64,000 nt of DNA from Octopus vulgaris (taxonomy: Eukaryota). Numbering within the stretch: the stretch's first letter is position 1; each line of letters begins with the position of its first letter. Where the stretch lies: the NCBI GenBank assembly GCA_951406725.2, contig OX597821.1, forward strand, positions 22,134,001 through 22,198,000. The letters run 5' to 3'. Below are positions 11,414 through 41,920 of this stretch, piece by piece. The notes below the pieces were generated by a model. It saw nothing but the letters and a program-made list of their open reading frames with translations, did no database searches and was not told the DNA's origin. Made by a program: the position numbers and the translations under genes.

Positions 11414-11868
<455 letters not shown>

Positions 11869-11944
11869 GCAGTGTGGAAGGTGTTTATTAGCCATTTAAG
11901 AAACACACAAAAGCCGTTCGATTCACTTCAACATTTAAGTTTAA

Positions 11945-11994
11945 TTTGTCAAAATATTTTCGTCGCTAAAATCCGCGACCTGTTCACTGACAAA
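11945..11994 (-). ncRNA. Type I hammerhead-like fold with G3-C8 core variant
   Basis: Minus strand tttgtca-GTGAACA-g-gtcgc(ggatttta)gcgac-GAAA-atat-TT-tgacaaa: 7-bp stem I, 5-bp stem II, palindromic AAUAUU stem III. Confidence 0.7.
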
Positions 11995-12004
11995 AATCCG
12001 TGCA

Positions 12005-12370
12005 GCCAGTGCAATACAGAAGCCATTGTCTTTGAAATAGATTCCAGTGGAGCAACGAACGTGCGGAAATATATAAGTGTAACGGGAGGTCCTTTGAGTA
12101 CCAAGTTCAGAAACCACAAATCCGCGTTTAATACCCAAGTGCAACGTAATGTTGCAATTCTAACGAGACGTGAATGGTCATTGAAGGAAATCGCTGCGCA
12201 TTATGGCATCAAGTGGAAGATACTAGGAAAGTGCAAATCTTACCCTAGAAAAAGTCAGTAGTACAAACTTTACTTGACTGAGAAAAGAATTAGTTTGAAG
12301 AACTCCATTCTCCCAGGCACCTTCTTAAACATTAAAAGTGAATGTCTTTTGCTCCTGCTATCATAAGCGC
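12005..12370 (+). pseudogene. Penelope-like GIY-YIG endonuclease relic
   Basis: CNTEAIVF..KYISVTGGPLSTKFRNHKSAF..WSLKE..IKWKILGKCKSY..*YKLYLTEKRI..LNIKSE matches the PLE GIY-YIG pattern; internal stop. Confidence 0.8.
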
Positions 12371-19400: not shown

Positions 19401-20399
19401 TGTATGTATGTATGTATGTATGTATGTATGTATGTATGTATGTATGAATGCATGCATGTTAGAATGTATGCATGTTTGTGTATATGTGTAAACTTCACCT
19501 TGTGTAAGATACATTGTATAATCTGGTTTGAATGTCGATAAGTTGATAAGTAAAAGGTGTTTCTCTTATTCATAACTTCAAGAATTTAACCAATCACTGA
19601 TTTAAACATAATTTTCAAAGAAAACGTTCAAGAAAGCACTGTAAACGCATCGTAAAACTGTTCTCTTCACCTGCATGTCATATGTATATATATATGAAAA
19701 AATCATGTGTGTTAAGTACGCTGCGACTGACGAAAGGGCCTGTTGCAGAGGGAGAAAAATGTACACGAAACCTCAGTCCCCAATACATTTACATATTCTA
19801 TATTCATGTAATCCTATGAATCTCTGTAAACATCTAACTTATTTCTTAAATAATTCGTCAGCCAGTCATCCTCAACAGAAAGATTGTTTTACTTTTGGTT
19901 TATATATTTATGACAGAGTGGGAAAATTATTTCCTATCTCTGTTGAACCGTTGTTATTTTTCTGCCTGAAATTTCCTCTTTGAGTGCCTTAGACTGTGAC
20001 GAAAGGACTTTGACAGATTAACTGATTAATCAACTGGTCAATTGCTTAATTATCTAATAGACCTATTATAAAACTGAAGTGAAACGTAACTAGTGCGTGT
20101 GCTTTTATTAGCTACTAGCAGAAATACCAGGCGTTGCCCGGGTTAAAGAGAACAATGAAACTTAAAAACCCCGTCTATATTACGCAGGTCTCAACTGCTA
20201 GTAGCTGACATACCAACTTTCTACATTAACTCTCCGATCCATGCCAGCATGGAACATAGACATTAAGTGAAATAGTAAAAGAAAGTTTTCAACTCATATA
20301 TGTATATAAAGTAAGTACACGTAATTCAAAAACACGTATTGTGTAGCTTATTTCGTAAACAAAAAACAGGTGCAGATTATAAACAATGAAAGACCGATT

Positions 20400-21021
20400 T
20401 CGGTGATTCATTTGGCAGAAGTAGTAGAGAGCGAATCCGATGATAAATCTGACCTTGGAGCTTGAAAGTTTGCATGAATTCTGGTTCAGTTAAATCGCTT
20501 GTGGCTCCAAATGATGTCATCTGTAGTGTAGCGCTGTATTGTCTAATTTTGTTTTGGAAGTGCTTGGAATCTTGGTCAGTTGATGACAACAGTTTCTTCA
20601 ATGGTTCTGGAGGTTGGGTTATTGCAGGGAGTTTAACCTTTCCACCATTACAGTACAGTGCAGGTGTCTCTCCAAGCCATTTCCTTGCTTTACAATGTAT
20701 GCACTCAGTTGTTACTGCACCACTGGAAACTCTAGCGTCATCTGCATAATGAACTGCTAGATCATAATTGAAAGCTGTTTTATAGAAGTTGCTTCTCTGA
20801 GATGTTGCAGCTGCTCTTCGTTCTGCAGTGGAGATCCTATTCCATGTCAGCCGTGCATGCCTCTGTTCATCACTTTAAGATGCTCTGGCTTTTGTAGTGC
20901 ACAGTTTGCTCGTTTCTTGGTATGCGTCCCTTTCTGCAGTTGTCTCTCTTTCCCTGGACAGAGACATTCTTTTGGCTGACCTTGACATTGTAGACACATT
21001 TGACACTGTCCTTCTCGGCAT
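20400..21021 (-). pseudogene. Helitron RepHel N-terminal fragment
   Basis: MPRR..AFNYD..CIHCKARKWLGE..CNGGKVKLP..PPEPLKKLL..HFQNKIRQYSATLQMTSFGA..FMQTFKLQGQIYHRIRSL. Confidence 0.85.
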
Positions 21022-32360: not shown

Positions 32361-32953
32361 ACCAATTGGCTAACAATAAAGGAATCAGTGCGTGTGCTAA
32401 TAATATTGGCATAATGACTTTCCCTAGACACAACGTCAATTTTTCTCCACTATTCTCGACTCTAAGTAGTGCCACTTATTCAGTATTAGGAGTATTAGAT
32501 CCTGTTGGCCTTGAATTATCGATGCTTCCCTAACTTAGCTTCTATTTTTTTTTTCTAGGTAATGGGGTTGGCCCTATGCAAACCCGTTTTTACTTCTGGG
32601 AAGAGATGGCTCATATTGTATGGCCGCAGTCAAATGACTGAAACAAGCAAAAGAAAAAGAAAATAAATAACTACTATTCCCTTCAAGCTTTGCTTTTGTG
32701 ACCTGGATATCAATGTTTTGAAACTGACCACTTTTCCATTACATTTCAGACAAATTTAGCACTGAGCTGCTGAAGCAGAAATATCGTTATAGCAAATATT
32801 CTGTTCAATTGAGATTTGCTTGTCAGTTGCTGGATCTTAACCACTTAAGCACATCCCTTAGTGGCTGGCAATATGCGCGTCTCTGATCATGAGAAGGAGT
32901 AGTAGAGTATACATATGCGTATCCATACATACATAAATATAGTTATATGTATG

Positions 32954-35624: not shown

Positions 35625-36813
35625 TGATTGTAACCTGTTAGCACATTCCCAGTAAGATATGCAGCACATGCTGAATGCGATTTCTGCTGCATGTACAGCA
35701 TTGGGTCTAACGATCAATCTAAAAAAAACGGTTATAATGTACCAGCCTGCTCCCTCCTAGATGTATGTGGAACCCTTTATAACTGTGAATGGTCAAAGGC
35801 TGGAGACTGTACCTTGATTTATTTATTTAGGAAGTACCTTGAGCACTGCTGTTGGTGATGATGAAATTTCATATAGAATCAGCAGGGCTAGTAGTGCTTT
35901 TGGTAGGCTTGATAGGCGTCTGTGGAAACAACATAATATATCTTAAGATATATAACACGTGCGTCCTACCATCTTTGCTATATAGGAGTGAGGCATGGGT
36001 TGTTTACCGTGGGCATGTAAGGCAATTGGAACGATACCATCAATACTGTCTGAGAAAATTTTGGGGGATAAACTGGAAAATTACATTACATTAGTAATGT
36101 GGAGTTGCTTGAGAGGAGTGAATCTAGAAGTATAGAGTCAATGATTTTGCAAAGACGTTTGAGGTGTGGGGAGGGCATTTGGTAAGAATGAGTTGATAAG
36201 CAACAGCCCAAGGAATTATTGTATGGTGAGCTGGAAGATGGGAGGAGACCAGCGCATAAGCCTAATTTAAGGTTTAAGGATTGCCTTAAAATGCTCTAAT
36301 ACAGACAGGAATTGCAGCTGGTGATTGGGAGAGAGAGACACAAGACTACGATGGATGGAGGTAGATAGTACCTGATGGTTGTTCAAGGTTTGAGAGGGAG
36401 ATAGTGAAATATGAGAGAATTAGGAGGGGACTTAGAAGGAGGGAAACTGTAGAAAGTGAGAGTGTTGTTTTTTTGTGTGTGTGGATTGTGGGAGTAGGTG
36501 TTTGAGTCATGATGGCCTGGTGAGCCATCAAAAATTTCACATGAATCGGCCCATGATAAACAGTGATGTGGCTATTAAAATTCACAACAGAACATGTGTA
36601 AAATGTGGAAGGGTGTGCCGCTCAGCTGGAGGTCTGAAAAGACACGTTATAAGAGTGCATATGGTGGCACCTGTTTCTCCTGCCAGCCAGCACAGTTGTG
36701 CAGTATGTACTAAAACTTGTAAAAGTTTGAATGGGCTCAAAAGTGACGTAAGGGCATCACATGGCATCAATAATGAATCATTTGAGTAAGTCTTTTTGCC
36801 AATGGCTTTTCTC
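35625..36813 (+). mobile_element. 5'-truncated RTE LINE: RT C-terminal part and three C2H2 zinc fingers
   Basis: GLTINLKKT..FIYLGSTLS..RISRASSAFGRL..VLPSLLY..PKELLYGEL..RFKDCLK; CVDC..H..H, CVKC..H..H, CAVC..D..H. Confidence 0.9.
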
Positions 36814-41504: not shown

Positions 41505-41549
41505 TTAACACTAACTTACTGAGATTTTTTCTTTCTATTTCAGGTAAGT
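41505..41549 (+). other. Candidate recursive splice site (3'SS abutting 5'SS) at 41543/41544
   Basis: aCTAAC branch point 41510-41515, ttttttctttctattt tract 41525-41540, CAG|GTAAGT. Confidence 0.55.
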
Positions 41550-41920
41550 ACAACTCATTTACGGACTATAAATTTAATGTTCATTTTCTTTCGCATCCCC
41601 TGCTGGCTGTATCATATAAAATACAGTTGATGGTGAATTCTGAAGAAATATTACAGAATATTCTAAAGAATGTGAAATCTACAGCTGCTATAAAGTCGGT
41701 ATATTGTGGAACTATTTCTAAAATCTTTTCAGCTCTTTTTTTTTTTTTTTCCAGAAATACATTATATAGAATATGTAACTGATAAATATCTTGTGCTATC
41801 ATATATATATATACACATACATACACGCATGAATATATATAGAGAGAGATAGATAGATATAATCGATGCGCATATATATGTATGTATATATATACGTGCA
41901 TACAGAAATATATATATATG

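Follow-up and report, generated by a model that had tools for sequence, protein, structure and literature searches.

Recursive splicing has been documented in Drosophila, mice and humans, its prevalence being undefined, according to a 2026 review (PMC13149111). The recursive introns of flies range from 11 to 133 kb and are divided in segments of 2.6 to 64 kb (mean 18 kb), and the branch points of their ratchet points are located between -36 and -21, with a peak at -30 (10.1101/006163). Fly sites split introns evenly and favour first introns (PMC6110457), and they require a cryptic exon (RS-exon), which is then skipped (PMC8605326). In mammals, no more than nine intronic sites with full suppression have been noted definitively (PMC8605326), and the large introns of vertebrates are little enriched in the motif (PMC2773006). 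The latter study (Shepard 2009), which is computational, reports a sense-over-antisense excess of (y)n-cag/gtaagt (here and below, the slash marks the splice boundary) in introns longer than 50 kb of insects and sea urchin, with 0.5-2.2 sites per unit in invertebrate introns (PMC2773006). Recursive splicing is not increased with genome size in a lungfish study (10.1101/2024.12.11.627982). Among the open-licence PMC and bioRxiv papers searched, whose supplementary cross-species tables could list molluscan sites, no paper was found on recursive splicing in octopus, molluscs or cephalopods, which agrees with a preliminary description of the present locus that knew of no cephalopod case; cephalopods and recursive splicing are mentioned together only in a reference list, and no paper on ratchet points in invertebrates by that name was found in the same collections. 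The octopus offers the case that was wanting: its genome, though that of an invertebrate, is vertebrate-sized, and its introns reach the megabase range.

The window, the whole stretch of 64,000 nt of Octopus vulgaris DNA that was analysed, shows a single occurrence of a pyrimidine tract followed by CAG/GTAAGT (Table 1). The preliminary description had proposed it as a candidate recursive-splicing site, and the sequence check found the ACTAAC, the tract, the CAG and the GTAAGT each in its reported place. The acceptor-donor feature is real and non-random. It juxtaposes a 3' splice site (branch point, tract and YAG) and a 5' splice site (GTRAGT), as ratchet points do, on the sense strand of a very long intron and off annotated exons, the exon joins being taken from models and proteins of other species. 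On this evidence, the site at 41544 would be, with a probability of roughly 0.8, a fly-type recursive splice site (ratchet point) in the giant first intron of a tetraspanin-18-like gene. The sequence is non-repeat, as described earlier: a 321-nt stretch around the site has one match in the 2.8-Gb genome, in a search which skips very common words. The uniqueness claimed for the site holds for the tract with CAG/GTAAGT and not for weaker forms, as a look-alike on the + strand, without a good downstream donor, had gone unlisted 9 kb upstream. The bare 9-mer YAGGTRAGT is found twice in the window against 2.07 expected, and its other copy (59843) shows no tract; with the 9-mer at chance level, the question had to be tested at larger scale. 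The lists of open reading frames of the window and of 464 kb contain only repeats and transposon remnants, with no recognisable host exon. The window is rich in microsatellites and contains a transposon-like remnant at 36460-36786 (+), with C2H2 zinc-finger fragments that are marginal or below the Pfam cut-off, and two others at 20377-20871 (-) and 11692-12261 (+), without Pfam matches, which we take to resemble Helitron and Penelope pieces.

Table 1. Features of the window (position 1 is its first nucleotide)
Feature	Position	Strand	Basis and remarks
Internal stretch of the predicted giant first intron, tetraspanin-18-like gene	1-64000 (C8:22134001-22198000)	+	homology-mapped exons
Weaker look-alike: CCTAAC, tract, TAG/GTAATG (doubtful)	32529-32564	+	top downstream donor only 2.4 bits
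Branch-point-like ACTAAC	41510-41515	+	sequence; putative branch A is 41514, 30 nt ahead of the AG end (-30)
Upstream AG in GAG context, without its own pyrimidine tract	41522-41523	+	sequence; 8 nt past branch A
Polypyrimidine tract, 15 of 16 pyrimidines	41525-41540	+	sequence
CAG 3' splice site (putative recursive acceptor)	41541-41543	+	sequence
GTAAGT donor hexamer	41544-41549	+	sequence
Putative cryptic RS-exon, 89 nt	41544-41632	+	inferred from best downstream donor
Putative RS-exon donor ATG/GTGAAT, weak	41633-41638 (+89)	+	donor-matrix score, 5.7 bits

Exons of the host gene lie outside the window, in line with the earlier remark that none is recognisable in the 64 kb. A region of 1.464 Mb around the window was read and scanned for spliceable open frames, which gave tetraspanin exons on the + strand, downstream of the window by approximately 320-360 kb. 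Octopus tetraspanin-18-like proteins match one of these exons with 100% identity, and PF00335 was matched; the gene is assigned to the tetraspanin-18-like class by this domain and by identity to the annotated Octopus TSPAN18-like proteins. An exon shared by the isoforms starts at C8:22493643 and the coding exons follow from there on the + strand. No first coding exon was found by motif search, and first exons were mapped instead via homologues, as the N-termini of public and transcript-derived isoforms: O. sinensis models (P0003/P0074 and P0072), O. bimaculoides and Argonauta models (P0071 and P0061), and the transcript-derived proteins P0056, P0058 and P0078 (67% identity). There are at least eight alternative first exons, which end at C8:21250364, 21701726, 21936334, ~22219227, 22366048, 22393483, ~22413822 and 22451505. 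The first three are upstream of the window and predict introns of 1,243,278, 791,916 and 557,308 nt, respectively. Models of O. bimaculoides and Argonauta connect the exon ending at 21936334 with the shared exon; for the one ending at 21701726 this join is found in one O. sinensis model and the three transcript-derived proteins, and for the most distal one in O. sinensis models only. The public model P0073 joins the most distal exon to a different second exon. Since these joins come from public gene models of related species and from transcript-derived proteins mapped on the genome, not from own-species reads, the intron assignment is homology-based and can be taken as firm for the introns of 557 and 792 kb and as weaker for that of 1.24 Mb. 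The 557-kb intron has no assembly gaps; the distal intron part, further upstream than the 21936334 exon, holds two of 100 N each. The giant cephalopod intron postulated earlier is thus placed in an octopus gene on the + strand, and the site, for which an intergenic position or transcription from the minus strand would have been a refutation, lies on the sense strand as judged from the homology-mapped exons.

The tandem first exons extend over 1.2 Mb (C8:21250047-22451505), are in phase 0 onto the shared exon and encode different cytoplasmic N-tails; one of them shows 67% conservation in transcript-derived proteins from a cephalopod cluster that is more distant. These gene-empty 1.2 Mb probably form a single transcription unit that has eight promoters or more. 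Further downstream, the host isoforms differ by four residues just before the exon at C8:22547772, through alternative donors upstream of it.

The tract with CAG/GTAAGT is present at six positions of the 1.24-Mb intron: C8:21448361, 21731769, 21831940, 22038050, 22175544 (41544 of the window) and 22311577. All six are in sense and none in antisense orientation, against an expectation of 0.054, a value based on only two background events. The tract thresholds were chosen after the first sites had been seen; the sense to antisense counts are 6:0 at thresholds of 11-13 pyrimidines of 15, 4:0 at 14, 7:1 at 10 and 9:2 at 9. An acceptor tract precedes six of the eight sense copies of CAGGTAAGT, compared to 381 of 14,599 sense CAG, and 0 of 3 in antisense. 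The sites divide the intron in segments of 198, 283, 100, 206, 137, 136 and 182 kb, a spacing more even than random (CV 0.34, P 0.004, 100,000 uniform draws). Weaker donors (GTATGT, GTAATT, GTAAAA, GTAAAG and GTAATG) behind a tract are found five times in sense and once in antisense, including the 32559 site of the window, and mostly have no strong downstream donor; if such sites were used, segments of 100-283 kb would be an upper bound. In C8:21250365-22493642, NAG/GTAAGT of all kinds, even without a tract, shows a sense excess (31 vs 13; TAG, 11 vs 1), whose tract-less part is perhaps due to donors of unannotated leaders or cryptic exons. A common short repeat of the same region ends in a tract with CAG/TCATTT and shows no strand bias (39 sense, 41 antisense).

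The genome was scanned with one fixed tract pattern, varying the hexamer after CAG. GTAAGT follows the tract and CAG 35 times and GTGAGT 17 times; the other hexamers are less frequent: nine TTAAGT, six CTAAGT, five GTTAGT, and four each of GTCAGT and ATAAGT. The triplet before GTAAGT is CAG in 35 cases, TAG in 31, and AAG and GAG in two each, this is, YAG in 66 and RAG in four, which speaks against plain donors placed behind pyrimidine-rich exon ends. It thereby bears on a reading in which GTAAGT would serve as the regular donor of an alternative first exon, non-coding and unannotated, whose end is pyrimidine-rich and finishes in CAG by chance. Such a first exon would suit a host gene with at least eight of them, and public isoforms P0060 and P0067, which start at a Met inside the shared exon, imply non-coding leaders. 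None of the seven first-exon ends inspected, however, shows a tract before the donor, only about 60 unique bases precede the site before a TA/TG microsatellite begins, and this reading predicts neither the downstream cryptic donors nor the long AG-free zones described below; we consider it highly improbable. As a near-donor control, GTAAHT (GTAAAT, GTAACT and GTAATT) gave 78 matches, reduced to 34 when 44 of one repeat family were dropped. The resulting figure of about 11 matches per hexamer implies that up to around one third of the genome-wide sites may be chance matches or ordinary exons. The repeat family (about 44 matches genome-wide) carries the tract with CAG/GTAAAT, one base off the full motif, and one repeat-flagged copy with GTAAGT (L175, C3:157584655-157585677) has no downstream donor; these repeats could be seeds of new ratchet points.

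For the strand test 96 sites were pooled, which include, from the non-CAG matches, the TAG ones only. Neighbouring sites within 1 Mb are on the same strand in 16 of 16 cases (14 of 14 without the tetraspanin gene), with about three such pairs expected, and pairs more than 3 Mb apart in 22 of 50. The sense-strand enrichment named earlier as a check on the site is thus found within the host intron and across the genome. Same-strand clusters of two to four sites are present at C13:4.47-4.81 Mb, C13:56.7-57.8 Mb, C18:23.7-26.2 Mb, C18:39.83-39.97 Mb, C12:1.27-1.57 Mb, C12:7.21-7.57 Mb and C2:1.84-1.88 Mb, and probably correspond to other giant genes. Sequences were fetched for 60 of the 93 sites outside the host gene (all 23 clustered and 37 others), which, with the six of the host intron and after removal of two repeats, gave 64 sites. 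These were compared with acceptor-like antisense controls for downstream donors, a feature not used in site selection; donors were scored with an approximate metazoan matrix, and the bit scores are accordingly approximate. A donor of at least 8 bits is located at +25 to +130 in 27 of the 64 sites and in two of 62 controls, and at +200 to +305 in six of the 64. Donors of at least 6 bits peak at +30 to +59 (26 vs 1.0). AG-free zones are longer at the sites (median 57.5 vs 33.5 nt in controls), and a branch-point motif is present in 16 of 64 sites and 10 of 62 controls, a non-significant difference (P 0.16). The putative RS-exons have a median length of 58 nt and a GC content of 0.33, compared to 0.37-0.48 for coding exons of the host gene, and 12 of 47 are multiples of three, without bias. 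Many long genes of the octopus genome seem to use this acceptor-donor grammar. That the site at 41544 is a functionless chance juxtaposition in AT-rich, repeat-rich intron DNA is very unlikely in view of the 6:0 strand bias, the even spacing, the strand clustering and downstream donors of the genome-wide set, and the consensus branch point at -30 of this site, even if the bare 9-mer is no commoner in the window than chance predicts and background matches exist genome-wide.

The cryptic downstream donor, as in fly ratchet points, had not been foreseen in the preliminary description and was found for the class. At 41544 itself the donor is weak (Table 1): it has the top score in the 440 nt past the site and falls under the 6- and 8-bit cut-offs used genome-wide. 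The site also shows the shortest AG-free zone of the six sister sites, with an AG 22 nt upstream, and is therefore weaker than its class on two counts; two sister sites likewise have no strong cryptic donor (4.5 and 2.4 bits). For this fused acceptor and donor, the earlier term zero-length exon is better replaced by ratchet point, with a cryptic RS-exon that would normally be skipped. The putative RS-exon is not a multiple of three and contains a stop in the phase used by the first exons. Acceptor, 89 nt and donor also form a normal exon layout, and the site could be an ordinary acceptor that opens either a terminal exon or a small included one (41544-41632, poison or non-coding) starting with GTAAGT by coincidence, the GTAAGT being unused as a donor. 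Ordinary exons with AG/GT do occur: the host coding exon at C8:22547772, constitutive-looking, begins CAG/GTAACC, so that AG/GT by itself is no proof of a recursive site, and the control hexamers match about 11 times each genome-wide. Expressed RS-exons also exist in flies (PMC8605326). This explanation is nevertheless unlikely, as six sites in one intron all start with a perfect donor, the 89-nt exon would bring a stop and a frameshift, and in the protein isoforms examined, among which non-coding or degraded forms would not show, the shared exon directly follows a first exon, these sequences being absent.

The preliminary description also offered a 20-nt microexon (41524-41543), which would take its acceptor from the AG at 41522-41523 and its donor from GTAAGT. 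The AG exists and the donor is perfect; the acceptor, however, is a GAG with no tract before it, which makes the microexon unlikely, and lies only 8 nt past branch A. AGs so close to the branch A are poor acceptors. Twenty nucleotides would moreover put phase-0 first exons out of frame, the five sister sites are free of AG for 36-62 nt, and a contig of another organism (G) is one base short at 41525, which leaves 19 nt (one contig, depth 4.6; an error is possible). The microexon claim thus loses nearly all credibility. Compared with neural microexons, which have their own acceptor with a tract, preserve the frame and are conserved in length, this segment shows a GAG without tract, 20 nt and the loss of one base.

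Of the runs searched, none listed as RNA contains the stretch, which says nothing about expression. Four contig sets, of 24 runs listed, were aligned at the site and show neither a joint nor a loose end there, and contigs drop rare forms. Three contig sets, whose RNA status is guessed, have one contig each downstream, starting at 41544 (X2), 41539 (X1) and 41579 (X3); X1 and X2 belong to the same study and X3 to another, and the five bases before GT in X1 are genomic. A start at 41544 fits a junction, an exon start or a coverage break, and since the starts differ between studies they were not counted. The contig of organism G, from a DNA-like set (X12), spans the site and keeps CAG/GTAAGT. It is approximately 96% identical to the site region overall (eight substitutions and one gap in 218, five of the eight near the contig ends), which is too close to show selection on the motif.

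The sequence supports the earlier interpretation as a recursive site, the use of which we infer. By analogy with the fly and vertebrate pathway, exon definition would take place across the cryptic RS-exon, the first exon would be joined to the AG of the site, and GTAAGT would then be re-used as a donor, the first exon being handed on over the six sites step by step until it meets the shared exon. The site would thereby divide the predicted first intron of 0.56-1.24 Mb into segments. Placed behind the three upstream first-exon ends, GTAAGT at 41544 scores 12.1, 10.0 and 5.8 bits; such rebuilt donors (5.8-12.1 bits) might compete with the cryptic RS-exon donors (2.4-10.7 bits), which could provide a poison-exon switch specific to the promoter. 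A broader reading, which as a whole is tentative and rather doubtful, would be that megabase introns of the octopus are removed by a genome-wide ratchet of the fly type, with a six-site chain common to tandem promoters, donor competition as a possible switch, and a step about tenfold larger than in flies (100-280 vs ~10-20 kb), so that the step would be set by genome scale and not by a fixed limit of the spliceosome. If true, molluscs would be added to the groups with recursive splicing, which would point to an ancestral state in bilaterians.

The mechanism is already known from flies and vertebrates, and the clade and the scale are apparently unreported; what is new concerns the host gene, the statistics across the genome, and a segment length about tenfold that of flies. 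The result is a precise list of sites, six in one gene and about 90 more genome-wide, testable on existing nuclear or total RNA, and it raises the question of what sets segment length. It widens the range and scale of a known mechanism and adds no new kind of system. The evidence is of the same type as in Shepard 2009, a sense over antisense motif excess (PMC2773006); that paper names no mollusc, and its accessible part contains no RS-exon or spacing analysis. The locus resembles vertebrate RS-sites (Sibley 2015, as cited in PMC5126111 and PMC8605326) in its very long intron and YAG/GT site, and vertebrate RS-exons in the competition between rebuilt and RS-exon donors and the premature stop in the RS-exon (PMC5126111, PMC8605326). 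The octopus genome departs from those of vertebrates in looking like that of flies: its sites are many, and a gene can have several. The likeness to the Drosophila ratchet points with RS-exons described in Ubx, kuz, Bx and luna (10.1101/006163, PMC6110457, PMC8605326) includes a strong acceptor adjoining GTAAGT, a branch-point position around -30, location in the first intron, as many as six sites in one intron, which they subdivide evenly, a putative downstream cryptic donor weaker than the ratchet donor, and a putative cryptic exon that breaks the frame. The fly sites are proven by junction and lariat reads; those of the octopus are candidates. The octopus differs from Drosophila in that its sites are common to several tandem first exons and subdivide an intron of 557-1,243 kb, with segments between strong sites of 100-283 kb.
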